NCBI GenBank assembly: GCA_965178125.1
Contig: OZ237772.1
Span: forward strand, 248,001 to 312,000
DNA from: Bilabrum cf. latius
Taxonomy: Eukaryota
Reading direction: 5' to 3'
DNA length: 64,000 nucleotides
A program made the position numbers and the translations under genes. Of the stretch, positions 4,068 through 42,800 are shown one piece after another (positions within the stretch are counted from its first letter, which is position 1; every line of letters begins with the position of its first letter). The notes beneath the pieces were generated by a model. That model did no database searches, had not been told where the DNA came from, and saw only the letters and a program-made list of their open reading frames with translations.

Positions 4068-4371
4068 TTGCAGATCCTCGATCGAATGCCAGGTTTCTCT
4101 GGCATAGTCTCGAGCAATGCGCGTAGACTTGACCAGCATGTATCTGGAAGTCAGGAGCTCCGCAAACATACGGATCGGGTTGCTGCGCTCACCAAAGACG
4201 ACCCGTCGGCCTACTGCAAGCAGCACCCGGAAGCTGGCTGCTGCAAGCAGCTCCAGCCGGTGCTTGACGAGTGCGCGCCCTACTTTGGCAAAGACCCTAG
4301 CCCGCAGAAACTGTGTCCTTCCGACTGCGCCGCCAAGCTTCGTGTCCTGGCAAAGAGCCTCCCTGCCAGCG
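4068..4371 (+). pseudogene. 5' part of a host Cys-rich protein gene interrupted by the virophage insertion
   Basis: Frame ...KLRVLAKSLPAS rejoins in frame with GERDGVCASAIQG... at 29188 after removing the element and one CAGCG; true start or upstream exon uncertain. Confidence 0.75.
4367..4371 (+). repeat. Target site duplication, left copy (CAGCG)
   Basis: CAGCG directly precedes TG at 4372 and directly follows CA at 29182. Confidence 0.9.
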
Positions 4372-4472
4372 TGTTATCCGCCAAAATGTGTGTAGTTTTT
4401 ATATAAGTAAACTCTATTTCTACTATATAGTAGAAATAGAGTTATCATAACTCCACATTTTGGCGGATAACA
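4372..4472. other. Left terminal 101-bp imperfect hairpin
   Basis: TGTTATCCGCCAAAATGTG/CACATTTTGGCGGATAACA outer stem, perfect inner palindrome AACTCTATTTCTACTATATAGTAGAAATAGAGTT, asymmetric internal loop. Confidence 0.92.
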
Positions 4473-5904: not shown

Positions 5905-6095
5905 GAAGTGGTCCATTTGATCTTGTGTTCATATTTAGAATGTCCTTTAACTTGTATCAATGTATTGAGTACTTCTTCTAACTAGTCCTTAACAAATGAT
6001 TTTGTCTTATGATATGTCTTGGTAGTCTTCACCTATTTAATAACTAATTTACAAGTCTTACCGACAATATACTAAGTTAATAAATCTTGTATCAT
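5886..6095 (-). CDS. Small viral hypothetical protein (69 aa, TAG=Gln)
   Basis: ATG in AT-rich context, open through TAG codons to TGA; divergent from the 6104 gene. Confidence 0.5.
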
Positions 6096-6103
6096 AATAT
6101 ATT

Positions 6104-6511
6104 ATGTATGAGATAATTATTGATGGATTCAAATATAAACCCTCTACTCGTAGAAATAAGAAATATGATGTATTCAAAAATGGTAAGTATATCACTAGCT
6201 TTGGTGATGCACGATATGCTCAATACTTTGATTTGATTGGTAAGTATGGAGATAATAACCATATTGACCCTAAAAGACGACGCCTATACTACCGAAGACA
6301 CGGGAAGACTACCGATACTAATAGCTCAAAATATCACAGTCATAAAATCTTATGGGGAAGTGATAATGCTATAAAGGACTACTTAACAAAACTAGCCAAT
6401 GGAGTATTAGATGTAAAAAGGTATGTTAAAGGGGATACTTTGGAAAAATGGTTAGATGACTATAGGTCTAAAGTGGACGCAAGACTGAAACAATTAAAAA
6501 TATTAAATTAA
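6104..6511 (+). CDS. Basic viral protein resembling a small conserved NCLDV/virophage family (DUF5754-like)
   Basis: PSTRRNKKYDV...SFGDARY..Y...H.DPKRRRLYYRRH...ILW pattern recalled from large-DNA-virus proteins; TAA stop. Confidence 0.6.
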   Translation: MYEIIIDGFKYKPSTRRNKKYDVFKNGKYITSFGDARYAQYFDLIGKYGDNNHIDPKRRRLYYRRHGKTTDTNSSKYHSHKILWGSDNAIKDYLTKLANGVLDVKRYVKGDTLEKWLDDYRSKVDARLKQLKILN

Positions 6512-6668
6512 AAAGTCAATACGCCTAAACGCCCAGAATTGCGAAAATATATCTTGAATAGCTATAATATTACCGCAATTTCGGGCGCCCAAATTTGAAT
6601 CGAGCTTAAGACATCTCGTTTAATTAGACTTAAAAATAATATATTATTATAGTATATACTATATTATA

Positions 6669-10148: not shown

Positions 10149-10853
10149 ATGAAAAACACAATTTGGAAGTTTTTAAATGAATACTTTGATGTCTTTAGTT
10201 TAATACTTAAAATACGAGACGAAAACCCTAGTGATGTCATAAGTACTATAATAGCAATGTATGAAGAGAGCGAAATAGAAGACCCAAAAGAGATCCATAA
10301 ACATATGAGTGAAATACGTCATAACTTGGAACTTAGATTTAAAACAAAGTATGTTGAAGTATTAAGCACAGATCACGATGACAAAGCAGAAAGTTATCTC
10401 CATCTTAATAATATATTATGTAATATTGAAGGAGAGCAATATGTGGAGGATAGCAAAATCAAGATGTCCGAGAAAAAACAAGTATTTATAAAGACTTACG
10501 GTGATGTGGATAAATTCAATGACAAAACAACGGCATGAGCCGGAACGGCCACTGCCGCGCTGCCCCGCCCCCTTCCCTAAGGAAGGAGACGAGGGAATGC
10601 CTCGCAAGCTGCTGGTCGCACTGGCGGTTGCAACCTCGCGTTGGTAGACCGGAGCCTGTGTTCGAGTCTCGAACGCATCGCCACATCAACCCCGAACCCC
10701 ATTCGGCGTTAGCATTACGAGACTGTCCAAGAGATGGAACAAGAAGACGAAAAGACTAAAACAGGAGTAGAAAAAGAAATAGATCAAAAGTTAAGTCTAT
10801 TATGTAATACTTCTAAACAACCAGACAATATTTGTCTAGATTATAAATTGTAA
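10149..10853 (+). pseudogene. Viral hypothetical gene interrupted by a GC-rich insertion
   Basis: Same frame resumes after the insert (ETVQEMEQEDEKTK...DYKL, TAA); the insert introduces TGA at 10536. Confidence 0.7.
10502..10717 (+). mobile_element. Short GC-rich nested element, diverged relative of the 14912-15562 copies (left boundary 10502-10527 uncertain)
   Basis: Shares CCGCCCCT, TCGCAAGC, TGGTCGCAC, CGGTYGCAACC and CATCAACMCCGAACCCCATYCGGCGTTAG with the minus strand of 14912-15562. Confidence 0.7.
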
Positions 10854-14566: not shown

Positions 14567-15661
14567 TTACATACCATTTTCTTTTAATATTTTACTTGCT
14601 TCTCCTAGACTTACGCCATACTTCTTCATTACCGCACTCACTAATTTACCTCTTGCTTTAGCTTTTGGATTAGGTTTCCTCTTACGCTTAGCCTTTCCAA
14701 GTCCTACAGTCTTAAGTGCAGCATCAAGAGGGACACCAACTTCAGGGGCTACAAACTTAAGACCTGTTCGTATTGCCTTTCCTACATTACTTTTAATACC
14801 TTTTTTAATTGTTCGCCCTACTTTCTTGAATTTACGACCTACTTTTTTAAAAAAGCGTCCAACTTTTGAACCACCTTGAACACCATTCATTTGATAGTCT
14901 TCAAATAATTCTGATCCTAACGCCGGATGGGGTTCGGTGTTGATGCCAGAGTGGGAGCGCGTGAACGTCTCGTTGGGTTCCGATGGCGGTTGCGACCGGG
15001 AAGGTGCGACCAAGCCAACGGATTGCTTGCGATGACGCGCATACCCTCTCTGTGTTCAGGAGAGGGGCGGAGATTGGGTAATTTTTGGGCGGTAAGATTT
15101 GGCGGAGTAGTGCACGTGCTCTTCCCAGCCCCGGTCAGTCCGGTCAAGGGTCGCGCACAGGCACAGCTTTGTCAGGTCTTGCCATGTCTGATTGTTAACG
15201 AGACTAGGTTGCGCGTACACTCTGGCATCATGATCCTAACGCCGGATGGGGTTCGGTGTTGATGCCAGAGTGGGAGCGCGTGAACGTCTCGTTGGGTTCC
15301 GATGGCGGTTGCGACCGGGAAGGTGCGACCAAGCCAACGGATTGCTTGCGATGACGCGCATACCCTCTCTGTGTTCAGGAGAGGGGCGGAGATTGGGTAA
15401 TTTTTGCCCACCCTCCCAACCCCCTCCTCCTCGGCGGAGTAGTGCACGTGCTCTTCCCAGCCCCGGTCAGTCCGGTCAAGGGTCGCGCACAGGCACAGCT
15501 TTGTCAGGTCTTGCCATGTCTGATTGTTAACGAGACTAGGTTGCGCGTACACTCTGGCATCAAAGTAGTTTTTGCTTAAATTCGTCTTTTAAATTGTTGA
15601 CTTTGGCATTAGAGGGTGATTTACCTAGTTGCTATAGTCTTTGTCTTATGAAATCGTCCAT
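14567..15661 (-). pseudogene. Basic virion core-protein-like gene interrupted by a tandem GC-rich insertion
   Basis: Removing 14912-15562 gives MDDFIRQRL...KQKLL-ELFEDYQMNGVQGG-SKVGRFFKKVGRKFKKV...ARGKLVSAVMKKYGVSLGEASKILKENGM; the insert begins with in-frame TGA. Confidence 0.8.
14912..15562 (-). mobile_element. Two head-to-tail copies (319 + 332 bp) of a GC-rich non-coding element, no TSD
   Basis: Units 14912-15230 and 15231-15562; 13-bp asymmetric inverted repeat TGATGCCAGAGTG/CACTCTGGCATCA followed by a short subterminal hairpin. Confidence 0.85.
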
Positions 15662-15695: not shown

Positions 15696-16514
15696 ATGGT
15701 TAAATTAACAAAGTAGTAGCTAAAGTATTATTCACGATTTGATAATAAGATATTCAAGTCTTTTAAAATAAATAGAAGTGATATTTATTTAAATGGTTCA
15801 TATTCATTTACTCATAATATGCTTTCACTTTGGGCTGGAGACATAGACCTATACTCTCCCGTTAAATTGTCTGATGTCAATAGTGTTATAAATGAATTAA
15901 AGACCTTAAGAGGTAGTAGATTAATACATATTTATAACGTTGAATATGATGATAATGGCGTCTCTTTAGATACATTTCTTGATACTAATAGACCTAAAAT
16001 ATTAAAATCTTTAAAATAGTAGAATAATCCTATGATATTCGTTGAAAGTTGGGTCTATACTGGATATATTGAAGAGGTTAGTATATTATATGATATTGGA
16101 GGTAAGATATTGAAAATGAAGCCTAAACAAGTAGCAGATAGGATGATAGATGACATAAAAGACTTACAAAAAGAACGAAAATATTTCAAGATATTAAAAA
16201 GACTAGATGTTATATATGACGAATTAGGGCAAAAGAAGAAACAGGAAGAGATTGAACAACTTATAAAGAATCCCGATGTAGGCTTTCTTTACTTGACTAT
16301 TACAAGATTAAAAAGTTTATTACTTCCAACAGTTCCATTTAAATTAAAAAATAGAGTTATTGATAGACTTAAGAATGATGTACGTAAATTAGGACTTATT
16401 AAACCAGTATATCAATACTTTAATACGTTCAATAGTAAAGATGTAAGTATTATAATTAAATATTTAGAAGACTAGCTCAATAAAAGGGTCGTTAAATTAG
16501 TTTCACATAATTGA
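15696..16514 (+). CDS. Pol-beta-superfamily nucleotidyltransferase-like protein (272 aa)
   Basis: YLNGSYSFTHNMLSLWAGDIDL fits hGS-x(9-13)-DhD; frame continuous with TAG=Gln; TGA stop. Confidence 0.65.
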
Positions 16515-19011: not shown

Positions 19012-19371
19012 TATGACATATACCATAAATTTTTAGATATTGAAAATTGATATCTATAAGGTGGCCATATTAAAAAGACTAAAATATAAAAATGAATACG
19101 GGTACGCGCCCAGAATTGCGGAAATATATCTTAATATCCTAATATATTATCGCAATTTGGGGCGCTGGTATTATACTATATCTTAAGATACTAAATTTTT
19201 AAAATTTCGGAATATTGGATTTTTTCAATGAGTCAAATAATTAATAAAAACTTTTTCAAAAAGTCAATACGGGTACGCGCCCAGAATTGCGGAAATATAT
19301 CTTAAATAGCTATAATATTACCGCAATTTGGGGCATTAGACAAGACTTATTTTCTTGATAAATGTTATAGA

Positions 19372-20340: not shown

Positions 20341-22227
20341 ATGTCTGATATGGATAATGTACCTGTAGCAGCACAAAGCAAAGTCGTAGATGACGTCTCA
20401 GAACTACCAGTAACTCAAATAGCTGACGAAAAACTCAACTTTGTGGGTGATAGTCAAGCTATTACTCTAGGAACTACCCTTGGATACTCTTCCAAGTTCC
20501 AAAACCACTATGAACCAGATGGTGGTAACTCTAGCGCAACTAATGCATTTAGAAGTAATTACACTTTTGTCGTGCCATCAAATCAAGGAATGACTGACAG
20601 TAATCCCCGTCTAAGAGTTTCATTTGACGTATACATCTATGATAGTTAGAACAATGGAGCAGTAGCTCAAACTGATATCGTCAATAAGGTAGCCCCTTCT
20701 ACATTTATGGTAAATTCAATGATCACAAGTTCCACAGTTAAAATGGGAGACTTATCTCGTAGTTCATCACCTTATCAATTAGTCAATTTAATAGCTAGAA
20801 GTCTTGACCGTGCCACTCTAGCACAAATAAGTCCTGTCTTTTAGGCTGATAACACTTGGGAATTTAATACTGCCGCAAATGGTCTTGCTAAGTCTGTCCT
20901 TCAATGGGGTGTAAATGATGATAGTATTATGGAAGCTCGCGGTCCTGGTAAGAATTACCGCGCAACACTTGAAAAAGTGGATGCTAATACTCCAATACCT
21001 AATAATAATGTAACACCAACTCAAGACTATGTCAAATTACATATTGAAATCTCTGAAGCACTTCTTGCACGTCCTTTCCAATATATGATGGGTGGTAATG
21101 CTAGACCTTTTGTTGATCATCCACAATTAAATGTTAATTTACAAATGAGAAATAACTTAATTGATAAGATGTTTAATACTTCAAGTGATTGGAATGGAGA
21201 CTATGCTTTTGCTTTATCCGATTGCTAGATCCATTTTGATGTCTTTACTTATAATACTCATCTTAACTTCTTGAAGAAAGTACCTAAACAAATATTCTAC
21301 AACTCTGTTGACTTTGAACTACATGAAGAGCCTAAACTTGATAATCCTATCACTACTAAAGGTGTCCATACTTTTAATAATTATCAACTTTAGACTTGCC
21401 CTTCTTGGTTTGCTGTGTGCTTAGTTGATTCTCAATATGGAGAAGCTAGTGGTACACCTCATAGAACACTTGCCATTAACAATATTAAAGTACAACTTAG
21501 GTCTTAGGGTTCTATTTTAGGAGAACTTACACAAGACGATATCTTTAGACTTAGTGAAAGAAATGGATCAAATAGTGAGTATGCTTCTTTTACTAACTTA
21601 GATGTAACTGTAGGAGGTGCTTCTAAAGTATACGGATCTAATGGCTGGCTCTTATTTAGACTTAGTGATTTAAATACTCCTGAAACTATTCAAAGCAACA
21701 GTGCTGACCCTATTAGTATTCGTGTTCAAGTAGCCTATGACGAACCCCCAACCGCTGCTATGTCTCAAGGATATAAAGCTCAATTATTCTGTGCCTATGA
21801 CAAGATTATCGTGAATACTAGAGGTGCCGCTATTGAATGGCGTGAAGATAGTGCTTCTGTTGACCCTGAGAAAGTGGCTAAACCTTCTAATTATACATTT
21901 TCTAATATGAACTACTCTAAGAACGTATTAGGTGGAAGACGTCGTAAAGTGATGCAATTCTTTAAGAGAGCCTTTAACAAAGCTAAAGACTTAGGACGTA
22001 AAGTGGTAGACTTTGGAAAGAAAGCTAAAGCTAAATTTGATAAAGTGAAACCAGCTCTTCGTAAAGCAAGGCAAGCAGTAAGTGAATACTTACCCGATGA
22101 AGTGAATGACTTAGCTGAACGTGTTGGAGCAGGTCTTTTAACTAGTGGTGGAAGTCTTTTGACCAGTGGAGGTAAGAAATTAACTAAGGCTCAACTTATG
22201 AAACTTAGAAAGTAGCTCAATATGTGA
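20341..22227 (+). CDS. Major capsid protein (virophage-type, 628 aa)
   Basis: One frame joining the 20341, 20929 and 21760 fragments with TAG=Gln; beta-rich, ISEALLARPF; di-glycine sites and basic C-terminal tail; gene order ATPase-PRO-penton-MCP. Confidence 0.85.
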
Positions 22228-22384
22228 GTCGTAAATTATTAATTAATATTTAAAAGTTATAAATATTGACTAAATTTAAAAACTCAATACGGGTACGCGC
22301 CCAGAATTGCGAAAATATATCTTGAATAGCTATAATATTACCGCAATTTGGGGCGGTCATACCTTAAGACTAGTTTAAATATTA

Positions 22385-22417
22385 CGCCAAAAAATATCCA
22401 CTATATATATAGTTATG
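22385..22417 (+). promoter_or_regulatory. Conserved viral promoter-like motif CGCCAAAAAATATCCACTATATATATAG just upstream of ATG
   Basis: Related copies precede starts at 7243, 7563, 11280(-), 22415, 23331 and 23921, partially 10149. Confidence 0.7.
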
Positions 22418-22837
22418 GCAGCAGTATCACCGTGTGAAGACTTACTTTATATGGAGTATTCATTCTTATTCTTACCACATAGAGAAGACCCAACACTTAA
22501 ATCTCAAAAGGTTTACTTAGATGATGAACTTGAAGGAGATCCTGAAGACATTGTAATAGATAAAGATTAGATATAGGTAAATAATAGAGGTCATATAAAG
22601 ACATATGTAAGTGAAGGAGGCTTTACAAAGTTAAAGGTAGGATAGATAATTGAAGAGATGGAGCAAGAGGTGCGTAATTAGAATGGTATTCATTATGATT
22701 GTATTTTTTATCATAAAGTTGAACACGACACCAGCACAGATATTTATAAAGTAGTATGGGGGTGGTATCCAGCAGACTTTCCAACAAATGGATGCGACCC
22801 TGCTATCTTGTATAAGAAACCCCCTAATATGGATTAA
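22415..22837 (+). CDS. Viral hypothetical acidic protein (140 aa)
   Basis: Promoter motif, continuous frame with four TAG, TAA stop. Confidence 0.7.
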
Positions 22838-22842
22838 TTATT

Positions 22843-23160
22843 AAAAAAATTCTTTGAGCTAGTAATTATACCGATGGTTTGACTACTTGGCGAAGTCATT
22901 CGTAAGTCATTGTTGTAGCGGAGCCAGAACGTGAACTGATGCACCTGAAACCCTATTAAGTCTTACGACTAAGTCTGCTACAACCACTTACGACTACTTC
23001 TACAGTATCCAAACTCCCTTCAAAGACTTGCAAGACGTGTGCTTTGTCATAAGTATGACTTACAGAACGACTCACGGCGATGTCAGTGGTGGGAATCGAA
23101 CCCACGACCTTGACTTTGTGAAACAATCACGATATCACTAGACCAAGACCACAACGCACC
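22843..23160 (-). ncRNA. Putative Pol III transcript: degenerate tRNA-like head, long imperfect hairpin, oligo-T terminator
   Basis: Minus strand TGGTCTAGTG (A-box-like), AGGTC-GTGGGTTCGATTCCCAC (T-arm/B box); nested pairings across 22851-23026; T7 run at 22843-22849. Confidence 0.6.
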
Positions 23161-23195
23161 AAGAGGTAAAAAATATTATATTCAAATAAATTTAA

Positions 23196-23929
23196 AAATT
23201 CAATACACCTACGCGCCCAGAATTGCGGAAATATATCTTAAATAGCTATAATATTACCGCAATTTCGGGCGGTCATATCTTAAGACTAGTTTATTACTTT
23301 CGCCAAAAAATATCCACTATATATATAGTAATGTCAGATTATTTAGACTTCCATTTAATTAAACAAGTTGATGATATATGTTTCACTGGTGTTGAATTCT
23401 ATTAGGGATATCGAATAACTCAAGGTGAACAGCTTAAACAACTTAATTACTTATTCGTAGATAACAAAAAGGATATTGATAAGTTTGTATCTATTTCATT
23501 TGTAAAAGAAGCAGATAAGGATGAGTTTGAGCTATTACTGGTTAATGAAAATGGAAAATTAGAAGACGACACAGATATATTTAAAACAGAGAGAGACCTT
23601 ATTAAGTACTTGAAAGAAATAGATTTAAACAAAAAAGACTATTCAAATGATGATGTTATGTTGTCAACATTTCCAATTATAATGATGAGCATACGAGATC
23701 TAGTAATCAATAGCAATATTGGTTCAATTGAGAGTATCAAAAAAGGTGATACAGATCAATTTGACCACTTGAAAGATAACTAAATAAATTCAATACACGT
23801 ACGCGCCCAGAATTGCGGAAATATATCTTAAATAGCTATAATATTACCGCAATTTCGGGCGGTCATATCTTAAGACTAGTTTATTACTTTCGCCAAAAAA
23901 TATCCACTATATATATAGTAATGTCAGAT
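23196..23929 (+). repeat. ~144-bp direct repeat (23196-23339 and 23786-23929): palindrome + promoter + ATGTCAGAT
   Basis: Near-identical blocks precede two otherwise unrelated ORFs, both starting MSD. Confidence 0.9.
23331..23783 (+). CDS. Viral hypothetical protein (150 aa)
   Basis: Promoter motif, one TAG, TAA stop. Confidence 0.7.
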
Positions 23930-24271
23930 AAAGAAGATATCAAAATTGAACTATCTCAAAATTTTATAGATGAATGTCTTGTTAAAGGTGTAGGTGTCGA
24001 TGATGTAGTCAGTAGTATAGGTAAAAGTATTGAGAATCACTTTGATAAATATGTATGGATGAAACCAAAAGACAAAGGTGATGGTTATCGTTAGAATGTC
24101 TTTAGTTTTAAATTCGACAATATTATCAAGAAACTCGAAAGTACATTGGAACAGTTAGAATATGAAGAGCAAGTGAAACACGTCTAGGAGCTGATGTATC
24201 GTGTTGAAAGAAGTGAATGTGAAAGGAAGAAGAGAGAAGAAAAAATTAAAAAGACAAAAAGAGACCACTAA
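23921..24271 (+). CDS. Viral hypothetical protein (116 aa)
   Basis: Promoter motif, two TAG, TAA stop. Confidence 0.7.
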
Positions 24272-24333
24272 GTCATTTTATATAAGGTATGTATTATTAA
24301 GTCTTATTAAGTTTTTTATTAATAAGTCATAAT

Positions 24334-27677: not shown

Positions 27678-29182
27678 AAGTGGTATGAGTTAGTGAATAT
27701 GTAAAATTGAATACGGGTGAGCGCCCAGAATTGCAAACATAATTTTCTTGATACTTATATATTTCCGCAATTTGGGGCGGTCATATCTGGAGATACAATT
27801 TGGGGCGGTCATATTTATTATTAGTTATTTTAAAATATCTCGTCAAGTGGTTAAGTCTTTTTGTGATATCCCGTTAAGTGGTCAATAAAATGAACGGTAA
27901 GTCAAAAAAATTAATCAAAATAAAGAAGTAGTTGATTATTAATTATTGAAGACACCTACGCGCCCAGAATTGCGACAATATCTCTTAATATCCTAATATA
28001 TTTCCGCAATTTCGGGCCGTCATTTCTGGACATTTAATATAGCACATACTAGAAATATCTTTATTACAAAATTACACCTCTATAAGATAACTATGTCAAA
28101 ATTAACAAAATATAAAACTCAATACACCTACGCGCCCAGAATTGCGACAATATATCTTAATATCCTAATATATTACCGCAATTTCGGGCGCTAGTATTAT
28201 ACTATACCATATTTTATTATCCTATATTTTCCATTTAATCTAGTGATTAATCATTTCAAAGTAATACACTTGACATAAACCAGTTCATTGAGTCATTTTA
28301 AAGTCATCGTCAAAACATTTATCATTTTTAAGTTATCCCGCTTTGTATTCCTTTATATCATATACTCAAACAAAGGACTTTAACATATTTAAAGAATTAT
28401 GAAAAATAAAAATCAATACACCTACGCGCCCAGAATTGCAGAAATATATCTTGAATAGCTATAATATTACCGCAATTTCGGGCGATAGATAAAAGAATGT
28501 ATTTTTAAGGGGATACCCTTATATTTGAAGTTTTGAAGAGATGACATATAAAAGACTTTATAAAGTGATTAATATCTCCTTCTAGTTATATTTAAATATT
28601 CAATTATTTAAGTATAGATTGACAAGTAATAAAAAAAGAGATAAATTAAGTTGATATATTAGTTTAGTTTTATTTATTAATTTAAATTTTTCATTGGAAG
28701 TATTAAAAAGACTTTAATACTTCTGTCAATCTCTTTAAGTATTTATTTAGTTATTTTCTAAAGTGGTAAATGTCAATTGATACTTAAAACCAAATCATAA
28801 TATAAAACTCAATACACCTACGCGCCCAGAATTGCGAACATATATTCTTAAATGACTATATATTTCCGCAATTTCGGGCGGGCATATCCTAAGACTTAGG
28901 CTAGGGATTCACTCAACAGATTAAGTAAAGTAAAGGTCTAACAGATAGACATTAACGGCGCGAAGGTATTAAATTAGGTAGATATATGAATAAATAGCTA
29001 TTAAATTATTATGTTCAAGTGAAGGACATTATGAAGGACTACGGCTTAAGATGTTGTGAAGTGGTTAATATTGACCTCTTATGTTATCCGCCAAAATGTG
29101 TGTAGTTTTTATATAAGTAAACTCTATTTCTACTATATAGTAGAAATAGAGTTATCATAACTCCACATTTTGGCGGATAACA
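27678..29182 (-). repeat. Right terminal inverted repeat (1505 bp)
   Basis: Reverse complement of the left TIR; lacks one 28-bp tandem unit. Confidence 0.92.
29082..29182. other. Right terminal 101-bp imperfect hairpin, identical on the + strand to 4372-4472
   Basis: Direct comparison of the two sequences. Confidence 0.92.
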
Positions 29183-29187
29183 CAGCG
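29183..29187 (+). repeat. Target site duplication, right copy (CAGCG)
   Basis: Matches 4367-4371. Confidence 0.9.
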
Positions 29188-30843: not shown

Positions 30844-33800
30844 TTACCCCCTTCTGCCAGCCGCAGCGTCCGTTTCCTGCCCCTCTGCTGCCCCCAGCTG
30901 CTATGCAGCCTTCTCAATGTTGCTGGCGAACTCGCTCACGACCACTCGCCAATCCGACTTCTTGCGCTTCATGGCGGGACGCCCGCCGCTTCCAGCACCG
31001 CCTGCACCCGATCTGCGGCCATCAGTGCCCTTGGATCTGCTGCTGCGGTCCCGGTCCCGGTCCCGGTCCCTGCCACGTCTCTCCTGCATGTCTACAGCGC
31101 GTTCTGCAAGAGACACCAGCCCTGGCCGCTCCACCGGCTTACGGCCCGGCCTGCCCGCCGCATGTCTGGATGGCATGTCTCTCGCTGTCGAGTCACGGCT
31201 GCCCCGCCGCGCGTATCCTGGTGGCCCGAGCCGGGCCCCGCCACCGACTCGGCGGCCGGCCGACTGCTCCTGGGCCCGTTGGCTCTCGCCCCTGCGTCCT
31301 CCTCGTCCACCTGCAGCGGTACTCGACTGGGCCCCTCCTCGTTGTGTTCCCGCCGGCGGTCTCCTGTGGCCTGGTCGCGGCAGCCTGAGCGGTTCCTGAT
31401 CCTCCTCCTCCTCCCCCTCTGCTGCTGCCGCTGCCTCGGCGCTGTGCTTGCTACGCATTGAGAAGCTCCTCGGCAGGTGCTCTGCTTGGGCCCTTGCTGC
31501 TGCCTTGCTGAGGTTCGGGTCAGACCGGTTGTGCGCGTGGTCACGACCCACTGCCATGATTACCACATCGTCACCGTCTTCCACCAGCTTGCGCCGCAGA
31601 GGCACGCCGTATTTCTCCATGCGCGGGTGCGGATACCCGGAGCTACCAACGTCAGAACCCCGGCTGCCGCTGCCCTCCATCCGCGGGGGGTCACCACCGT
31701 CCTAATACGGGCTGCGGGTGCCGGACAGCCGTCCGCCGAGAATGTCTGCCCCCGGGCTGTGCGGGGAAGAGGAAGACGGATGCTGGTGATACTGGTGCTG
31801 ATGAAGGGGATGAAGAGACCCTAGGTGCTTGTCAATTGGGGGTGTCAGTGCGCTGCCCAGACTTCCAGATGGACTCGCGCTTGATGGGCCCGACCTGTCG
31901 TTGAGTTTGGATGCCGCGCGTGGCGCGTGCTGCTGCTTGCTCTTGTGGTGTCCACCAGTCTCGTCTACCACCATGGCCACCGGCCTGCCGAGCTGCTTGG
32001 GGCTGCCATCACGCCGCTGGGCAAGTGTGAGGATCTGTGGCCCCGGTGAGGTGGCGTGCAGCCGGTGCTTGTCATGGTGATACCCCGAAGAAGGCGTCCC
32101 GTCAGGTGGCGTGATCTCGCCGTCGCTGGGTAAACCGTCCTTGTCGCCGATTTGCTACCTCCGTGGTGTCGTTGCCATCATCTTGGCGGAGGTTTGAAGC
32201 TCGTGCAGCTGAAGCCTAAGCTGGGCGATCAGCCGGTCCTTGGCAGCGATCTCCCTGTCGTGCGCCCGCCGGACCGCCTCTAAATCGGCCAACGCGCTCC
32301 GCAGTTTCTGCTGCAGCTCACGCTCAGCTGCCTCTGATGTCCGCAGAGCATCGCTCAGCTGCTGCACTCTTTGGCTCTCATCCGAGGTGGAACGCCTTGC
32401 GTCAGAAAGCCTGGCTTGGAGTGCTAGGTTCTCCTCCTCTCTGGCATCCAGGGTCCGTTGCGCGCTGTCAAGGCGTTTCCTCAAGTCAGCGATCGCGCCG
32501 TCCTATGCGCTGCTCCTCTTCCTCAGCTCGTCAGCGATGACCATTTGCTCGGATAGAGAGGCACGCAACCTGTCGGCCTCGCCGGCAGTCTCTTGCTTGG
32601 ACTCGCTCGCAGCTGCCACCCGCTGCTGCTCGTGCGCTAGCCGCTGCTGCAAGTCTTGCGCCGACTCGCGCGCAGCTTCCAGGGCAGTCTCTGCAGCGTC
32701 CCTGGCCAGCTTGGTCTTGCGAAGTTCTTCCGCATGCCCGTCTCGCTGGCGGTCCGCCTCTTCCCTAAGCCTCTTCTGCGCGTCGCGAAGCGCCCTGACC
32801 TCTGCTTCGGTGGTGGCAAGCCTCCGTTCGAGGGCGGTCTTCGCGTCCATCACGCGCTGCATGTCCTCGTGAGCTCGCTCCGCGGATCCGCCTACCGCAG
32901 CTTCGCGGGCGCGAGCCTGCTCCGCCTCGCTTCGCACCGCGTTCAGCTCGACGCTAAGCCGAGCAGCCCGCTCCCGTGCAGCGGCGTGATCGGTCCGAAG
33001 TCTGGCGAGATCGGAGGAGGATGCCTCCAGCTACCGTTCGAATGCCTCTGCGCGCTGCTCCATGGAAGCCACCTCTCTGCTGAGCTGCTCTGACTCCTTG
33101 CGAGCTGCATCGGCATGTGCCCGAGCTGTGGCTGCTTCCTCCCGGGCTCGCTGCATGTCGATCTGAAGGCCGTCTGCCCGCGCAGCCAGCAGCCGCTTCG
33201 CCTCGATCGAGTCGGACAGCTGCTTGTTCAGTTCCTCCACACGGGCGCTCAGCTCCGCCCGCCGAGCATCCACGCTGGCCAGCTCATCGGCTGCCTTGGA
33301 TTCAGACTCCTGCAGCCGCCTGCGACCCTCTGCTTCCGCTGCCCGAGTGGCCTCGTTCCGTTTCTCAGCTTCCTGCTCCCACTCGCGGAGCCTTACCTCC
33401 TGTCGCCCCAGCTGGGATCTCGCCTCCTCAAGCTCGCTCGTGAGTCGGTCAACGGCTACTTTCTGCTCGTCCACATCAGCCAAGGCCTTGTCGAGCTGCT
33501 TCTGCAGCTCCCTTTCCGCCTCTGCTTTCTTTCTCTGGGCATCCATGCCCTGCTCCCGAGCATCATCGGCCTCCTGCTGCCACCTCTGCGTCTCGGCTGT
33601 GGCCGTTTCCGTTGCTGCATTTGCTGCCTGCAGCTGTCGCTCCAGAGTACTGATCTTGTTTTCCAGTGCAGATGCATTGTCCGCAAGCACCCCCGACTCC
33701 GCCTGGTGTCGAGCAAGAGCTGCAGACCTCTCTGTGCGTGCTTGCGACAGCTCAGTTCTCAGCTTGGAGGCATCGTCCAGTGCCTTGTCCAGCCGCTCCC

Positions 33801-36800
33801 TCAGCTAAGCAGCCTGCTCATGGCTTTGCCTTGACTGGCGCTTGACTTGCTCGCAAATGGCAGGCACGTGGCCCGCTGCCGCAGCAACCGACTCGGCGAC
33901 GGAACTCGAGTGGGGCCATGCCCCTACAGGCGACGGGATGACCTTGGTGGGATCCAGACCCGCATGGTCTCCCGCCAGAACTTCGCTGGCTAGCTCCTGC
34001 ACTGCGGTCTTCATCTCCTGGATTGCATTTGCAGACGCCTCGTCGTGCGCCTTGAGCTCTGCAAGGACATCTTCAGCTTGCTTCATTGAGGCTGACAGCT
34101 TTTTCTAAGTGCTCTTAAGCTCCATTTCCAGCTGCTTTCCACTCGCAGCTTGCTTCGTCGCAGCTTGCTGCACATATTCAAGCTCGCTTTGGAGCCGACG
34201 CTACTCTTCCGAAGCCAGGCGTAGCGCCTGGTCCGCGAGTGAACGCGATGAACGGGCCTTCTCAGCAGCCTCCGCCGCTGCCTGCCGATGCGACGCACGC
34301 ACCCATCGACCGAATGCAAGACCCAATGACGACCCACGACTGTGACGCAACAGACCGCCCAACACACGCCGGGCAGACCGACGACGCTACGCACCCGCAC
34401 GCCACGCCCCGAACACCTGACCCATACGACCCTGCCGCAAACGACTCACAGCAAGCAAAGCCGCCGCGCGCTTCTGGCCCTGCAAACGATCCGCCTAAGC
34501 ACGCACCGCAGCCAGCTCAGCAGCCTGTGCCTGCAGAGCCGCGCTTGCCTCCTGCTGCGCCTGCGCCCCGCTCGATTCCAGATCCGCTGCCAGCCGCTTC
34601 GCCTCAGCCAGGCTCGCCGACGTCGCGTCAAGCTCCGCCTCCCGACGGGCCTTGTCGTCCCGCAGCTCCCGCAGCTCTGCCTCCATCCCAGCCTTCTGCT
34701 CCGCAAGCCCAGACACCTCCTGCTTGGCCTGACCCAGCTGACGCTCCAGAGCCTCCAGCCGAGCCTGGGACTCTCGCCTGGCCTGCTCTTCTGCCCCGAG
34801 CGCCTTACGCACCTGAGCCGCCTCTGCCTCCAGCTGCTTCCGGGTGGCCGCAGCTTCCTTCAGCGCCTTCCCGCGCCCCTCCTTCTCCGCCTTGCCTTCC
34901 TCCTCGGCCCGGGCCAGCTTCACGCGCACCTCCCCCAGCTCGCGCTCCTTCACAGCCAGTGCCTCTGCCGATGCCTTCTCAGCCTGCTCCAAGGCCTGCT
35001 GCTCCGCATGCAGCGCCTTCTCCAGACCAGCACGCTCCGACTCCTTCTCAGCCAGTGCCTGCGACAGCTCAGATCGAGCCGACTCCAGCGATGCAAGCTT
35101 CGACTCCAGCTCAGACCGAGCGCCACCCGCGTCCCGCAGTCGAGCCGCCTGCTCCTCCAGCGACGCACGCAGGCTCGCGCCCTCCGACCGCACACGCTCC
35201 AGCTGACCCTCCGTCTCCCGATGAGCCGCCGCGTGCTTCACAGCAGCCGCCGCCATCTCCTCCTCCAGCTCGCGCGCCCGCTCCTGCCCGCTGCATCGCA
35301 CCCAGCGCGCGAAGGCAGATCCAAGGGCGCTGTCGCGGCTCTGCCGAATCAGCCGCTGCAGCACACGGCGCGCCACCTTGCGTCGAGTCACACTCGCTCG
35401 CCATCGATCCAGCCACTGACGCAAGCCATGGGACCGAAGCTGACCCACCACACGGAAAGCAAGCGCACGCTTCGACGATCGGGCCTCGGCCAATGCGCCC
35501 TCTGTGTCCTTCAGCTGCGTCCGCAGTGCATCCGATGCAGACCGAAGCGCATCTTGCTCCTGCTGCAGCTCTGTCTCGGTGGCGTGCAGACGAGAAGCCA
35601 ACGCGTCTCGGTCCTTGGTTGTCTTGGCCAGCTCCTTCTGCAGCTCATCCCGCTCTTTGCCCAGCTGAGACAAGGTGCCGGACAGCTCCATCACCTGATC
35701 CGACAGACTGCTGGCCTTGGCAGACTAACTGCTCAGCTCCGCTTGGCTTGCACTATGCAGAGACTCCAGCTCCCGACGAGCCTTCGCTGCAGCCGCATCG
35801 GCCTCCACCGCTGCCTGCCGATGCGACGCACGCACCCATCGACCGAATGCAAGACCCAATGACGACCCACGACTGTGACGCAACAGACCGCCCAACACAC
35901 GCCGGGCAGACCGACGACGCTACACACCCGCACGCCACGCCCCGAACACCTGACCCATACGACCCTGCCGCAAACGACTCACAGCAAGCAACGCCGCCGC
36001 GCGCTTCTGGCCCTGCAAACGATCCGCCTAAGCACGCACCGCAGCCAGCTCAGCAGCCTGCGCCTGCAGAGCCGCGCTTGCCTCCTGCTGCGCCTGCGCC
36101 CCGCTCGATTCCAGATCCGCTGCCAGCCGCTTCGCCTCAGCCAGGCTCGCCGACGTCGCGCCAAGCTCCGCCTCCCGACGGGCCTTGTCGTCCCGCAGCT
36201 CCCGCAGCTCTGCCTCCATCCCAGCCTTCTGCTCCGACAGCCCAGACACCTCCTGCTTGGCCTGACCCAGCTGACGCTCCAGAGCCTCCAGCCGAGCCTG
36301 GGACTCCCGCCTGGCCTGCTCTTCTGCCCCGAGCGCCTTACGCACCTGAGCCGCCTCTGCCTCCAGCTGCTTCCGGGTGGCCGCAGCTTCCTTCAGCGCC
36401 TTCCCGCGCCCCTCCTTCTCCGCCTTGCCTTCCTCCTCGGCCCGGGCCAGCTTCACGCGCACCTCCCCCAGCTCGCGCTCCTTCACAGCCAGTGCCTCTG
36501 CCGATGCCTTCTCAGCCTGCTCCAAGGCCTGCTGCTCCGCATGCAGCGCCTTCTCCAGACCAGCACGCTCCGACTCCTTCTCAGCCAGTGCCCGTGACAG
36601 CTCAGATCGAGCCGACTCCAGCGATGCAAGCTTCGACTCCAGCTCAGACCGAGCGCCACCCGCGTCCCGCAGTCGAGCCGCCTGCTCCTCCAGCGACGCA
36701 CGCAGGCTCGCGCCCTCCGACCGCACACGCTCCAGCTGACCCTCCGTCTCCCGATGAGCCGCCGCGTGCTTCACAGCAGCCGCCGCCCTCTCCTCCTCCA

Positions 36801-39800
36801 GCTCGCGCGCCCGCTCCTGCCCGCTGCATCGCACCCAGCGCGCGAAGGCAGATCCAAGGGCGCTGTCGCGGCTCTGCCGAATCAGCCGCTGCAGCACACG
36901 ACGCGCCACCTTGCGTCGTGTCACACTCGCTCGCCATCGATCCAGCCACTGACGCAAGCCATGGGACCGAAGCTGACCCACCACACGGAAAGCAAGCGCA
37001 CGCTTCGACGATCGGGCCTCGGCCAATGCGCCCTCTGTGTCCTTCAGCTGCGTCCGCAGTGCATCCGATGCAGACCGAAGCGCATCTTGCTCCTGCTGCA
37101 GCTCTGTCTCGGTGGCGTGCAGACGAGAAGCCAACGCCTCTCGGTCCTTGGTTGTCTTGGCCAGCTCCTTCTGCAGCTCATCCCGCTCCTTGCCCAGCTG
37201 AGACAAGGTGCCGGACAGCTCCATCACCTGATCCGACAGACTGCTGGCCTTGGCAGACTGACTGCTCAGCTCAGCTTGGCTTGCACTATGCAGAGACTCC
37301 AGGTCCCGACGAGCCTTCGCTGCAGCAGCATCGGCCTCCGCCGCTGCCTGCCGATGCGACGCACGCACCCATCGACCGAATGCAAGGCCCAATGACGACC
37401 CACGACTGTGACGCAACAGACCGCCCAACACACGCCGGGCAGACCGACGACGCTACACACCCGCACGCCACGCCCCGAACACCTGACCCATACGACCCTG
37501 CCGCAAACGACTCACAGCAAGCAACGCCGCCGCGCGCTTCTGGCCCTGCAAACGATCCGCCTAAGCACGCACCGCAGCCAGCTCAGCAGCCTGCGCCTGC
37601 AGAGCCGCGCTTGCCTCCTGCTGCGCCTGCGCCCCGCTCGATTCCAGATCCGCTGCCAGCCGCTTCGCCTCAGCCAGGCTCGCCGACGTCGCGTCAAGCT
37701 CCGCCTCCCGACGGGCCTTGTCGCCCCGCAGCTCCCGCAGCTCAGCCTCCATCCCAGCCTTCTGCTCCGCAAGCCCAGACACCTCCTGCTTGGCCTGACC
37801 CAGCTGACGCTCCAGAGCCTCCAGCCGAGCCTGGGACTCCCGCCTGGCTTGCTCTTCTGCCCCGAGCGCCTTACGCACCTGAGCCGCCTCTGCCTCCAGC
37901 TGCTTCCGGGTGGCCGCAGCTTCCTTCAGCGCCTTCCCGCGCCCCTCCTTCTCCGCCTTGCCTTCCTCCTCGGCCCGGGCCAGCTTCACGCGCACCTCCC
38001 CCAGCTCGCGCTCCTTCACAGCCAGTGCCTCTGCCGATGCCTTCTCAGCCTGCTCCAAGGCCTGCTGCTCCGCATGCAGCGCCTTCTCCAGACCAGCACG
38101 CTCCGACTCCTTCTCAGCCAGTGCCTGCGACAGCTCAGATCGAGCCGACTCCAGCGATGCAAGCTTCGACTCCAGCTCAGACCGAGCGCCACCCGCGTCC
38201 CGCAGTCGAGCCGCCTGCTCCTCCAGCGACGCACGCAGGCTCGCGCCCTCCGACCGCACACGCTCCAGCTGACCCTCCGTCTCCCGATGAGCCGCCGCGT
38301 GCTTCACAGCAGCCGCCGCCATCTCCTCCTCCAGCTCGCGCGCCCGCTCCTGCCCGCTGCATCGCACCCAGCGCGCGAAGGCAGATCCAAGGGCGCTGTC
38401 GCGGCTCTGCCGAATCAGCCGCTGCAGCACACGGCGCGCCACCTTGCGCCGAGTCACGCTCGCTCGCCATCGATCCAGCCACTGACGCAAGCCCTGGGAC
38501 CGAAGCTGACCCACCACGCGGAAAGCAAGCGCACGCTTCGACGATCGGGCCTCGACCAATGCGCCCTCTGTGTCCTTCAGCTGCGTCCGCAGTGCATCCG
38601 ATGCAGACCGAAGCGCATCTTGCTCCTGCTGCAGCTCTGTCTCGGTGGCGTGCAGACGAGAAGCCAACGCGTCTCGGTCCTTGGTTGTCTTGGCCAGCTC
38701 CTTCTGCAGCTCATCCCGCTCCTTGCCCAGCTGAGACAAGGAGCCGGACAGCTCCATCACCTGTTCCGACAGACTGCTGGCCTTGGCAGACTGACTGCTC
38801 AGCTCAGCTTGGCTTGCACTGTGCAGCGACTCCAGCTCCCGACGAGCCTTCGCTGCAGCCGCATCGGCCTCCACCGCTGCCTGCCGATGCGACGCACGCA
38901 CCCACCGACCGAATGCAAGACCCAATGACGACCCACGACTGTGACGCAACAGACCGCCCAACACACGCCGGGCAGACCGACGACGCTACACACCCGCACG
39001 CCACGCCCCGAACACCTGACCCATACTACCCTGCCGCAAACGACTCACAGCAAGCAACGCCGCCGCGCGCTTCTGGCCCTGCAAACGATCCGCCTAAGCA
39101 CGCACCGCAGCCAGCTCAGCAGCCTGTGCCTGCAGAGCCGCGCTTGCCTCCTGCTGCGCCTGCGCCCCGCTCGATTCCAGATCCGCTGCCAGCCGCTTCG
39201 CCTCAGCCAGGCTCGCCGACGTCGCGCCAAGCTCCGCCTCCCGACGGGCCTTGTCGTCCCGCAGCTCCCGCAGCTCTGCCTCCATCCCAGCCTTCTGCTC
39301 CGACAGCCCAGACACCTCCTGCATGGCCTGACCCAGCTGACGCTCCAGAGCCTCCAGCCGAGCCTGGGACTCCCGCCTGGCTTGCTCATCTGCCCCGAGC
39401 GCCTTACGCACCTGAGCCGCCTCTGCCTCCAGCTGCTTCCGGGTGGCCGCAGCTTCCTTCAGCGCCTTCCCGCGCCCCTCCTTCTCCGCCTTGCCTTCCT
39501 CCTCGGCCCGGGCCAGCTTCACGCGCACCTCCCCCAGCTCGCGCTCCTTCACAGCCAGTGCCTCTGCAGATGCCTTCTCAGCCTGCTCCAAGGCCTGCTG
39601 CTCCGCATGCAGCGCCTTCTCCAGACCAGCACGCTCCGACTCCTTCTCAGCCAGTGCCTGCGACAGCTCAGATCGAGCCGACTCCAGCGATGCAAGCTTC
39701 GACTCCAGCTCAGACCGAGCGCCACCCGCGTCCCGCAGTCGAGCCGCCTGCTCCTCCAGCGACGCACGCAGGCTCGCGCCCTCCGACCGCACACGCTCCA

Positions 39801-42800
39801 GCTGACCCTCCGCCTCCCGATGAGCCGCCGCGTGCTTCACAGCAGCCGCCGCCATCTCCTCCTCCAGCTCGCGCGCCCGCTCCTGCCCGCTGCATCGCAC
39901 CCAGCGCGCGAAGGCAGATCCAAGGGCGCTGTCGCGGCTCTGCCGAATCAGCCGCTGCAGCACACGGCGCGCCACCTTGCGCCGAGTCACGCTCGCTCGC
40001 CATCGATCCAGCCACTGACGCAAGCCCTGGGACCGAAGCTGACCCACCACGCGGAAAGCAAGCGCACGCTTCGACGATCGGGCCTCGACCAATGCGCCCT
40101 CTGTGTCCTTCAGCTGCGTCCGCAGTGCATCCGATGCAGACCGAAGCGCATCTTGCTCCTGCTGCAGCTCTGTCTCGGTGGCGTGCAGACGAGAAGCCAA
40201 CGCGTCTCGGTCCTTGGTTGTCTTGGCCAGCTCCTTCTGCAGCTCATCCCGCTCCTTGCCCAGCTGAGACAAGGTGCCGGACAGCTCCATCACCTGTTCC
40301 GACAGACTGCTGGCCTTGGCAGACTGACTGCTCAGCTCAGCTTGGCTTGCACTATGCAGCGACTCCAGCTCCCGACGAGCCTTCGCTGCAGCCGCATCGG
40401 CCTCCACCGCTGCCTGATGATGCGACGCACGCACCCATCGACCGAATGCAAGACCCAATGACGACCCACGACTATGACGCAACAGACCACCCAACACACG
40501 CCGGGCAGACCGACGACGCTACACACCCGCACGCCACGCCCCGAACACCTGACCCATACGACCCTGCCGCAAACGACTCACAGCAAGCAACGCCGCCGCG
40601 CGCTTCTGGCCCTGCAAACGATCCGCCTAAGCACGCACCGCAGCCAGCTCAGCAGCCTGTGCCTGCAGAGCCGCGCTTGCCTCCTGCTGCGCCTGCGCCC
40701 CGCTCGATTCCAGATCCGCTGCCAGCCGCTTCGCTTCAGCCAGGCTCGCCGACGTCGCGTCAAGCTCCGCCTCCCGACGGGCCTTGTCGCCCCGCAGCTC
40801 CCGCAGCTCAGCCTCCATCCCAGCCTTCTGCTCCGACAGCCCAGACACCTCCTGCTTGGCCTGACCCAGCTGACGCTCCAGAGCCTCCAGCCGAGCCTGG
40901 GACTCCCGCCTGGCTTGCTCTTCTGCCCCGAGCGCCTTACGCACCTGAGCCGCCTCTGCCTCCAGCTGCTTCCGGGTGGCCGCAGCTTCCTTCAGCGCCT
41001 TCCCGCGCCCCTCCTTCTCCGCCTTGCCTTCCTCCTCGGCCCGGGCCAGCTTCACGCGCACCTCCCCCAGCTCGCGCTCCTTCACAGCCAGTGCCTCTGC
41101 AGATGCCTTCTCAGCCTGCTCCAAGGCCTGCTGCTCCGCATGCAGCGCCTTCTCCAGACCAGCACGCTCCGACTCCTTCTCAGCCAGTGCCTGCGACAGC
41201 TCAGATCGAGCCGACTCCAGCGATGCAAGCTTCGACTCCAGCTCAGACCGAGCGCCACCCGCGTCCCGCAGTCGAGCCGCCTGCTCCTCCAGCGACGCAC
41301 GCAGGCTCGCGCCCTCCGACCGCACACGCTCCAGCTGACCCTCCATCTCCCGATGAGCCGCCGCGTGCTTCACAGCAGCCGCCGCCATCTCCTCCTCCAA
41401 CTCGTGCGCCCGCTCCTGCCCGCTGCATCGCACCCAGCGCGTGAAGGCAGATCCAAGGGCGCTGTCGCGGCTCTGCCGAATCAGCCGCTGCAGCACACGA
41501 CGCGCGTTCTACTGTTGCTGTGTTGCCTGCCTCCATTGCATGAAGGTCTGCGATAGGCGCTGCTTCTAAGTGTTCGCCATCCATTTCTTGGCTGCATGTA
41601 GCACTCTCTGGCGCAGTTTGGTTGTCTAGCTGTTTGCTTGTTTGAGTTCGTCCCGCAGCTGCAGCTCCGTGTTGGTCGCGTCGTGGATCTGTTCGTCCTG
41701 CTGGTTCTGCAGCTATCGAAGCGCCTCCATTTTGGCTTGGGCCTCCTTGCGGAACTCTATCGCGCGGTCCTCAGCTGCCTTCACTCGCTCGTCTGCCGAT
41801 TGTTCGGCCGCAGCTCGCATCGCATTGCTGTCATCGCGCTCTTTCCTAGTCATCTCTGCGAGTTTTTCGTACTGCTCCTTGGTTTGCTTCGCTGTCGCCA
41901 TGGTGTCTTGGGCGGCTCTCTCGGCTGCATCGGCTCGTTCTTCCGCTTTCTGTCGCTCCTCCATGGCTGCTTCACGTGCCTACTACGCCTCCCTGCATTG
42001 TTCCACTGCTCGATCGGCCTGCTGCCTCATCCTGTTGATGACATCATCTGCTTCCTGTCGAGCTGCACCAGTCCTCGACTTTGCACGCTCTGCGTCTTCC
42101 CTGGCAGCCTCAAGGGCCCGCTCAGCGTCCTGAAGCTTGAGGGCTAAATCTTGGGCTTCTCGTTCGGTCTCACCAGCTTTTGTGCGACTCTGATCAAGCT
42201 CGCTCTCAGCACGGTTCAGATCATCTTGCAACCTCTACGCCAGCCGATCTGTCTCTTCCTTTGCGTGGGCAACTTCCGATAGTTCCTGTTGTGCCTGCGA
42301 AACGTCTTGCATCAGTCGATCGTTGCGTGCGGTGAGAGCCGCCTCAGCCTCCGCAGCATCGTCCACTATCCTGCGGTTCTTCTGCTGGAGCTCAGCCAGG
42401 GCAACCACTGCATGTTCCGCCCTCGCTTCTGTTTCCTCTCGCCCCTTTGCCTGCGTGCGAATCTGCGTCCTGAGCTGCTCCAGCTGCGCTCTCAGGTTTC
42501 GCTCTTCCTCGAGCACAGCCTCCCGCTACTCCTCCTCCCGCGCTGCCGCATCCTTGGCCTCCCTCCTGGCTTCTCGCGCTAGCCTCTATGCCTCTGTGAG
42601 CTAGCGCCTCAGCTCGTCCCGCTGGCTGTCTGCCTTGGCGACTGCGGCTGCCACCACACCGCCTACATCGACCTTGAGCATGTTGCGCCATTCACCGTCC
42701 ACTGGGGTACTGCTGGGGCTGGCAGGCTAGGACGATGCAGCGGCACGCTGGCCATGCCCGCTGCCCTTGCCCTCATCTTCATCTTCGTCCTCGCCCGGGC

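Follow-up and report, generated by a model that had tools for sequence, protein, structure and literature searches.

What occupies the short stretch between two neighbouring genes of a virophage that is integrated in the genome of Bilabrum cf. latius? At positions 22843-23160 of the window (the whole 64,000-nt stretch of contig OZ237772.1 analysed here), the letters alone had suggested an RNA with a tRNA-like head and a long hairpin, made by polymerase III (Pol III) from within a virophage, and a tRNA-derived SINE had been named as the alternative. The question raised by this locus is whether a virophage may own an RNA gene that its host's nucleus could transcribe, or whether the stretch is a mobile cassette, a signal of the neighbouring gene or a remnant.

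The virophage and its genetic code

The window has a GC content of 55-70% except for an island of ~30% GC, which holds the virophage. Two of its features frame the discussion:

4372-29182: integrated virophage of 24,811 bp, with 1.5-kb inverted ends and the target duplication CAGCG
20341-22227: major capsid protein of the Sputnik type, a 628-aa ORF with a Pfam MCP_V20_C match

The terminal inverted repeats (1.5 kb, 96.6% identity) have their outermost bases at 4372 and 29182, and the 5-bp duplication, found at 4367-4371 and 29183-29187, brackets them. Given these inverted ends and this duplication, the virophage is an intact integrated copy. With TAG read as glutamine, its other ORFs include an integrase with rve and chromodomain, a Prim-Pol/helicase and an FtsK-like ATPase (all by Pfam match), a penton-sized ORF, and a weak Pfam match to a cysteine protease. 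The matches to MCP_V20_C, integrase, Prim-Pol/helicase and ATPase, together with the inverted ends, bear out the original prediction that the stretch lies inside a virophage. A search of 5.8 billion clustered proteins gave just two relatives for the capsid protein, with 86% and 88% identity and encoded on Logan contigs of ~2 kb; the viral contigs of IMG/VR gave none at any locus. Given these two relatives and the blank in IMG/VR, the lineage is barely sampled.

These hallmark ORFs are legible only when TAG is taken as a sense codon. Under standard stops no ORF of the island exceeds 302 codons, and reading TAG as sense yields ORFs of 942, 638, 564 and 484 codons; reading TAA as sense did not open the large ORFs in a scan of the island, and TAA remains a stop. 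The 20 virophage ORFs contain 78 TAG codons versus 8 CAG and 129 CAA, TAG amounting to about a third of their glutamine codons, and they end in TAA (14) or TGA (6). In the integrase, TAG 308 aligns with the Q of the conserved GNPQS motif in a solved integrase. Host genes use the codon as well, with seven in-frame TAG in an HCO3-transporter gene (1282-3597) and 36 in a 4846-codon ORF (30844-45384). Virophage and host almost certainly both read TAG as glutamine. The long host ORF, which lies on the minus strand, is uninterrupted throughout its 4846 codons, is predicted to be coiled-coil, contains several near-identical repeats of ~500 residues and has no Pfam match.

Our literature search returned no paper on a TAG-recoded virophage or on a virophage with UAG/glutamine recoding. 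One hit that combined the terms 'endogenous virophage' and 'stop codon reassignment' (PMC12480563) is unrelated and concerns a plastid code. Since the virophage is intact and shares its use of TAG with the host, the pair could lend itself well to studies of how an altered code is shared among hosts, virophages and viruses.

The 311-nt unit and its parts

The element of interest and its neighbours lie in the following order:

22415-22837, plus strand: upstream neighbour, a 140-aa virophage ORF of unassigned family with 4 in-frame TAG
22843-22849, minus strand: T7 run (A7 on plus), a possible Pol III terminator, beginning 5 nt after the stop codon of the upstream ORF
22845-23155, minus strand: conserved unit of 311 nt, with a tRNA-like head, a long hairpin body and an oligo-T end
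23187-23320, plus strand: downstream neighbour, an intergenic module forming a hairpin with 21-nt arms, which precedes ORF 23331-23783

The intergenic module is a recurrent component of this virophage. It measures 80-130 nt and has 21 further copies there, in both orientations and mostly just upstream of genes (for example at 22271-22404, 23786-23910, 19255-19334 and 6502-6587, with five more in each inverted end, at 4658-5879 and 27703-28896). Its core is GCGCCCAGAATTGCGG...CCGCAATTTGGGGCG, preceded by AAAAAnTCAATAC, and it is probably a promoter/terminator unit of the virophage that is read by the giant virus's machinery. In other virophage genes only 3-44 nt separate the stop codon from the module, which makes the unit an additional segment in the gap between gene end and module.

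Elsewhere in the virophage, a GC-rich (~60%) and foreign-looking insert occupies 14912-15562, in the divergent intergenic region between ORFs 14567-14890 (minus) and 15696-16514 (plus). It consists of two tandem copies of ~320 nt that are 93% alike, one of them with an extra 27-30 nt. A 32-nt fragment from its start is seen again, in inverted orientation, at 10684-10715; apart from this the window contains no further copy, and Rfam gives no match to the insert.

The unit stretch has no protein-coding ORF, the longest stop-to-stop frame (TAG as glutamine) being 84 aa with no plausible start, and protein coding by the unit is rejected even under the altered code. Its GC content is 43.1% versus 31.9% for the virophage, a difference of 11 points that fits either a structural RNA or a foreign origin. 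The description of the stretch as an ORF-free, more GC-rich island was thus accurate on both counts. The unit occurs once in the 64-kb window, which includes ~39 kb of host DNA. Searches with a 34-mer and a 32-mer taken from it gave no loci in public viral contigs, and the 32-mer gave none in metagenome contigs either.

We also observed that the unit is assembled from short CGTAAGT/ACTTACG repeats. The hexamer GTRAGT, which has the same letters as the 5' splice-site consensus, occurs four times in 22845-23155 (one plus, three minus) against 0.69 expected, and four or more were seen in 7 of 2000 shuffles.

The tRNA-like part of the unit comprises:

23081-23155, minus strand: degenerate tRNA-like head of 75 nt with tRNA geometry, no D stem and a 4-bp remnant of the anticodon arm
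23145-23135, minus strand: A-box-like motif TGGTCTAGTGA, 9/11 against the consensus
23105-23089, minus strand: perfect T-arm GTGGG-TTCGATT-CCCAC with a 5-bp stem
23102-23092, minus strand: B box GGTTCGATTCC, 11/11, inside the T-arm

From the first conserved base at 23155 to the discriminator at 23081 there are 75 nt, which is canonical tRNA geometry, and five of the seven acceptor positions (GTTGTGG/CACTGAC) are paired. A 6-nt tandem duplicate, TGGTCT, stands ahead of the A-box-like motif, where the D stem would sit. The boxes were scored against consensus sequences (TRGCNNAGTGG for the A box), and the T-arm agrees with the GTTCGAnnC loop of tRNA genes. The starts of the two boxes are 43 nt apart, which is tRNA spacing and falls within the ~30-60 nt of a type 2 Pol III unit. 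The B box alone is unremarkable (one match versus 0.41 expected; at least one in 35 of 100 shuffles), and a perfect 5-bp T-arm alone turned up in 67 of 300 shuffles of the island. The T-arm combined with an A box that scores 9/11 or better and stands at tRNA spacing appeared in 2 of 300.

Database models recognise this head in part. The sole Rfam match with E <= 1 in the 24.8-kb virophage is to the T-arm/acceptor part of the tmRNA model (23078-23138, minus strand; 20 bits, E 1.8e-4, or 5.8e-6 when 801 nt are searched). At gathering thresholds Rfam has no match in the window, and the models for SRP RNA, RNase P/MRP, 7SK, VA and others give none with E <= 1 in 4372-29182. ARAGORN finds no tRNA at default settings, with introns allowed or over the whole window; at an 80% threshold only, it reports an odd 86-nt 'His' with a 3-bp D stem. 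The tRNA likeness of the head is real but partial, and the T-arm/acceptor minihelix is the only well-preserved part of the tRNA fold. The original prediction had seen the A-box-like motif, the perfect T-arm and degenerate acceptor and anticodon arms on the minus strand, all of which are there. Of the tRNA and Infernal searches it had proposed, the latter supplied the partial match to the tmRNA model, and neither ARAGORN nor the Rfam gathering thresholds supplied a tRNA.

Several more specific identities were rejected. Given that ARAGORN and Rfam find none at normal thresholds, the head is not a working tRNA gene. A suppressor tRNA(CUA) for the recoded TAG was dismissed because no anticodon stem closes, with or without an intron, around the sole CTA (23141-23139), which is in the A-box/D-loop position. 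The anticodon loop can be read as TT-TCA-CA (opal-type), a function that we reject given the lack of a D arm and the use of TGA as the stop codon of 6 of the 20 virophage ORFs. A permuted or intron-split tRNA has no matching 5' half downstream, and ARAGORN with introns is negative. On the plus strand, a retroviral-type primer-binding site was rejected, as no TGG precedes the complement of the tRNA 3' end.

The remainder of the unit is a long hairpin with two smaller ones:

22850-23029, either strand: long imperfect hairpin with a stem of ~55 bp in five helices
22851-57 with 23021-27, plus strand: stem helix 1 of the minimum-energy fold
22877-81 with 23010-14, plus strand: stem helix 2 of the same fold
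22892-96 with 22996-23000, plus strand: stem helix 3 of the same fold
22900-07 with 22986-93, plus strand: stem helix 4 of the same fold
22912-22 with 22974-84, plus strand: stem helix 5 of the same fold
22923-22951: hypervariable apical hairpin, with 11 substitutions and 2 indels between haplotypes and 3 compensatory pairs
23046-23059: small 5-bp hairpin, whose 4-nt loop differs at 3 positions between haplotypes and whose stem is unchanged

All five plus-strand stem pairings that had been named from the letters are present in the plus-strand minimum-energy fold. The body is predicted to form one branched stem, and its longest near-continuous duplex has ~19-21 bp (22900-22922 with 22974-22993) below a 51-nt top. 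In comparison with shuffled sequences, the predicted fold is better on both strands, only moderately so: for the unit 22845-23155 the plus strand has z -3.0 (0 of 200 shuffles as good) and the minus strand z -2.1 (4 of 200); for the 318 nt first singled out, z -2.7 (0 of 100) and z -1.7 (4 of 100); and for the hairpin 22845-23035, z -3.0 (0 of 200) and z -1.8 (10 of 200). A foldback or MITE-type transposon was rejected, given that the palindrome (22850-23029) and the conserved unit (22845-23155) have different limits. Among possible targets within the window for small RNAs derived from the hairpin, the top hit spans 19 nt at 89% (E 0.34).

Copies in other runs and the second haplotype

We compared the locus with Logan contigs, all of them short, of four public runs labelled as other organisms, here called X3 (organism A), X7 (C), X8 (D) and X9 (E); as to run type, X7 and X8 were guessed to be RNA, and X7 was marked as probably DNA. 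In X9 a 151-nt contig is identical to 22751-22901. It spans the junction between the upstream ORF and the unit, and the junction in the window is therefore not an assembly artefact. A 280-nt contig of X8 matches 22845-23103 and then continues leftward with 21 unlike, T/C-rich letters, and a 226-nt contig of X7 matches 22953-23155 with four differences and then continues rightward with 23 unlike letters. Nothing else of 22000-24300 is covered in X7 and X8 at 80% likeness or more, a blank that carries no evidential weight. X3, one of the main runs containing the virophage, places the unit on a contig of 630 nt, and the first 243 letters of that contig are not on the window; these at least 243 other bases beside the unit could be a second cassette or another insertion. 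Another X3 contig, covering 22329-22840, likewise continues with unlike sequence, the break falling between the stop of ORF 22415-22837 and the T-run of the unit.

In the runs where its flanks are unlike those of the window, the unit is 94-98% identical, and it is seen in at least three different neighbourhoods. On one side homology ends within the T-run, at 22845, and on the other at the base that opens the tRNA-like head, 23155. Given these two ends, what is conserved is a 311-nt unit with the limits that a transcript from a tRNA-type promoter should have.

A tRNA-derived, SINE-like retroposon or other RNA-mediated mobile cassette could account for such copies. It would have landed between the gene end and the intergenic module, would be of no use to the virophage, and would have kept its shape for mobility. 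This explanation is consistent with the nearly identical units beside unlike flanks, with the agreement between the homology ends and the expected RNA ends, with a GC content that differs from that of the virophage, and with the X3 breakpoint beside the T-run (22840/22843). In X8, moreover, the minus strand carries an A-rich stretch after the T-run, complementary to the T/C-rich letters noted above. An imperfect direct repeat, ATTAAAAAAATTC at 22840-22852 and ATTTAAAAATTC at 23192-23203, could be a target duplication. However, we do not count this A-rich 12-13-mer as one because it forms part of the module consensus and fails to bracket the unit, its right-hand copy lying 40 nt outside 23155. 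The explanation is further weakened by the single copy in the 64-kb window, host DNA included, and by the lack of an A-rich tail after the T7 of the window copy, and we know of no partner LINE. The X3 contig with the unit has a mean depth of 408.7 versus 477-519 for neighbouring virophage contigs (bins with the 22-copy module reach 4000-6200), which, contig depth not being a copy number, is a weak hint against a dispersed repeat. On balance we regard a SINE-like origin as somewhat unlikely. The alternative that the original prediction had named thus gains from the unlike flanks in different runs and loses by the one copy in 64 kb, the missing A-tail and the want of a clear target duplication.

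Three of the four runs compared carry a second haplotype of the unit (X3, X8, and X7 where it overlaps), which differs from the window by 15 substitutions and 2 one-base indels. The hairpin tip, 22923-22950, accounts for eleven of the substitutions and both of the indels. Three more (23051, 23053 and 23054) lie in the loop of the small hairpin, which reads AAGT on the plus strand in the window and GAAA in the second haplotype. The remaining one, at 23073, turns GTGAGT into GTAAGT. There are no differences in 22845-22922, 22951-23050 or 23074-23155, and the tRNA-like part is invariant.

The second haplotype was rebuilt by script from the table of differences, and both haplotypes were then folded. 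The minimum-energy fold of the second haplotype predicts the tip hairpin by itself, and all six core pairs of that hairpin can also form in the window sequence. Six of the 12 tip-stem positions differ between the haplotypes, and they form three fully compensatory pairs: 22925/22947 (C-G to G-C), 22926/22946 (A-U to C-G) and 22933/22942 (G-C to C-G). None of the 15 substitutions breaks a predicted pair in the joint fold, the other nine being unpaired or GU to AU changes on the minus strand. For a 6-bp apical stem, the chance of three complete pairs (20/924) that are all canonical (0.375 cubed) is ~1e-3, which is our own rough count, made post hoc on a single pair of sequences. Given that there are two haplotypes only, the covariation rests on one comparison. 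The original prediction had proposed covariation as a check, and the compensatory changes between these two haplotypes bear on it. The pattern argues for a folded nucleic acid under selection, which may be RNA or single-stranded DNA; compensatory pairs are strand-neutral, and DNA hairpins would show the same.

Could the unit be a dead relic, that is, a decayed virophage tRNA gene or a captured host one that stands beside an unrelated palindrome and has no present function? The head fails all tRNA tests at normal thresholds and contains a 6-nt tandem duplication, and tRNA genes do occur in some virophages (PMC10741620). Yet three compensated pairs with no disruptive change among 15 substitutions would be unexpected of a relic, as would 94-98% identity across runs with unlike flanks and a tRNA-like part (23074-23155) free of differences between haplotypes. 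We consider a relic very unlikely. The finding is real and goes beyond chance motifs: the unit is discrete, conserved, tRNA-derived and under structural constraint. Judging from these features of its sequence, it is probably a structured RNA gene or an RNA-based mobile cassette.

Strand, layout and possible roles

The two strands offer different kinds of evidence. Support for the minus strand and for Pol III comes from sequence features, namely the boxes with their spacing, the ends of the unit, the terminal T7 (at 22849-22843, as the original prediction had it) and the lack of any other run of at least four T, which in the window copy holds for both strands of the unit. In the second haplotype, which is the commoner one, the minus strand reads TTTT at 23054-23051, a run that the putative transcript would meet after ~105 nt. 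TTTT is sufficient to stop Pol III in many eukaryotes. This internal TTTT thus weakens the case for Pol III making the full 311 nt.

The predicted folds, for their part, lean to the plus strand, not the minus. The 11-bp main stem requires a G-U that is found only on the plus strand (A-C on minus), and the GAAA of the second haplotype is a GNRA-type loop on the plus strand. Between the window and the second haplotype, the plus-strand energy falls from -80.3 to -85.2, and the minus-strand energy goes from -88.1 to -87.2. The architecture first proposed (tRNA-like head with boxes, hairpin and oligo-T on the minus strand) stands as a layout, strengthened by the unit ends and the compensatory changes, and its strand is the part that fold significance, favouring plus, does not support.

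These folds raise the alternative of a plus-strand or DNA-level element. It could be a regulatory structure or 3'-UTR belonging to ORF 22415-22837, transcribed by the polymerase of the giant virus, or it could be a signal for replication or packaging; the tRNA likeness would then be a leftover. Besides the more significant plus-strand fold of both unit and hairpin, the plus-only G-U and GAAA loop and the energy change that lowers plus alone, the position directly behind a plus-strand ORF, with both neighbouring genes in the same orientation, is consistent with it. It leaves unexplained, however, why homology stops at the tRNA-like 5' end and at the T-run and why the A and B boxes have tRNA spacing, and the other virophage genes reach their module within 3-44 nt of the stop without such an element. 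A plus-strand or DNA-level role is in our view unlikely.

The reading that we tentatively prefer, as possible though far from assured, is that the unit is a discrete tRNA-derived cassette for a structured non-coding RNA, that is, a Pol III-type RNA gene of the virophage whose layout resembles that of the TMERs of murine gammaherpesvirus 68 (MHV68). TMERs are transcripts of 200-250 nt in which a tRNA-like element is followed by hairpins; Pol III makes them, and tRNase Z and Dicer process them (PMC4838037). The unit has the same order of parts on one strand, the A- and B-box layout and the oligo-T end. Unlike the TMERs, to which it has no sequence relation, it has one long branched hairpin of ~180-235 nt instead of two of ~60 nt, is a single copy rather than one of an array of eight, and has a more decayed tRNA-like part; its host is a protist and its carrier is a virophage.

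Other known systems share some of these features. In tRNA-derived SINEs, a head related to a tRNA contains internal A and B boxes, a body of unrelated sequence (100-300 nt) follows, and the flanks vary from copy to copy. The unit resembles them in its head, internal boxes, unrelated body and unlike flanks, and departs from them in having its own T-run end, one copy in 64 kb and neither an A-rich or LINE-derived tail nor a clear target duplication. Adenovirus VA RNA, for which an Rfam model exists, is a Pol III transcript of ~160 nt with internal boxes and a long imperfect stem, and has no tRNA-like T-arm. The unit shares the boxes and the stem, but it has 311 nt and a tRNA-like T-arm, and no VA match with E <= 1 is found in the virophage. 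In plant dicistronic tRNA-snoRNA genes, a second RNA rides on the tRNA promoter and is freed by RNase Z. The proposed second RNA on a tRNA-type promoter would be analogous, although the unit has no C/D or H/ACA boxes kept in both haplotypes and the only snoRNA-model match to its region (Rfam, E = 2) is on the other strand. The unit is outside every Rfam family tested (tRNA, VA, SRP and others).

Within virophages, tRNA-Met genes were found by tRNAscan-SE in two from Lake Baikal, and tRNA genes are also known from earlier metagenomic virophages (PMC10741620). The unit differs from these in failing ARAGORN and Rfam and in carrying a 235-nt extension. Our literature search returned no report of a Pol III gene, other non-coding RNA gene or tRNA-like hairpin unit in a virophage, PMC10741620 describing ordinary tRNA genes only.

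If the unit is indeed a Pol III-type gene, host TFIIIC and Pol III could transcribe it in the nucleus from the integrated virophage, without a giant-virus helper, and the putative transcript would start near 23155 and end in the T-run. On the assumption that the T-arm/acceptor minihelix (no D stem, 5/7 acceptor pairs) is recognised by RNase P and tRNase Z, a cut after the discriminator (~23081) would free a hairpin RNA of ~235 nt, which may function as a structured RNA or give rise to small RNAs. The hypervariable and always paired tip would then be the part that bears specificity. We can extend this into a more speculative and quite unlikely scenario, in which the virophage would own a host-Pol III gene that a silent provirus could express in cells that are not infected; the gene would need none of the giant-virus promoters on which all the protein genes depend. 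Clipping of the head would free the hairpin and the tip would set its target, the product serving as a small-RNA source or decoy against the giant virus, competing virophages or host silencing, and the cassette itself would pass from one virophage lineage or host to another.

On the prevailing view, the genes of an integrated virophage stay silent until a giant virus brings in its transcription machinery. If true, a Pol III-type unit would provide the first case of a virophage product within reach of the host nucleus alone, and the provirus could act before infection, in defence priming, self-maintenance or competition. Even if the unit is a retroposon, it would mean that RNA-mediated cassettes move between virophages, or between host and virophage.
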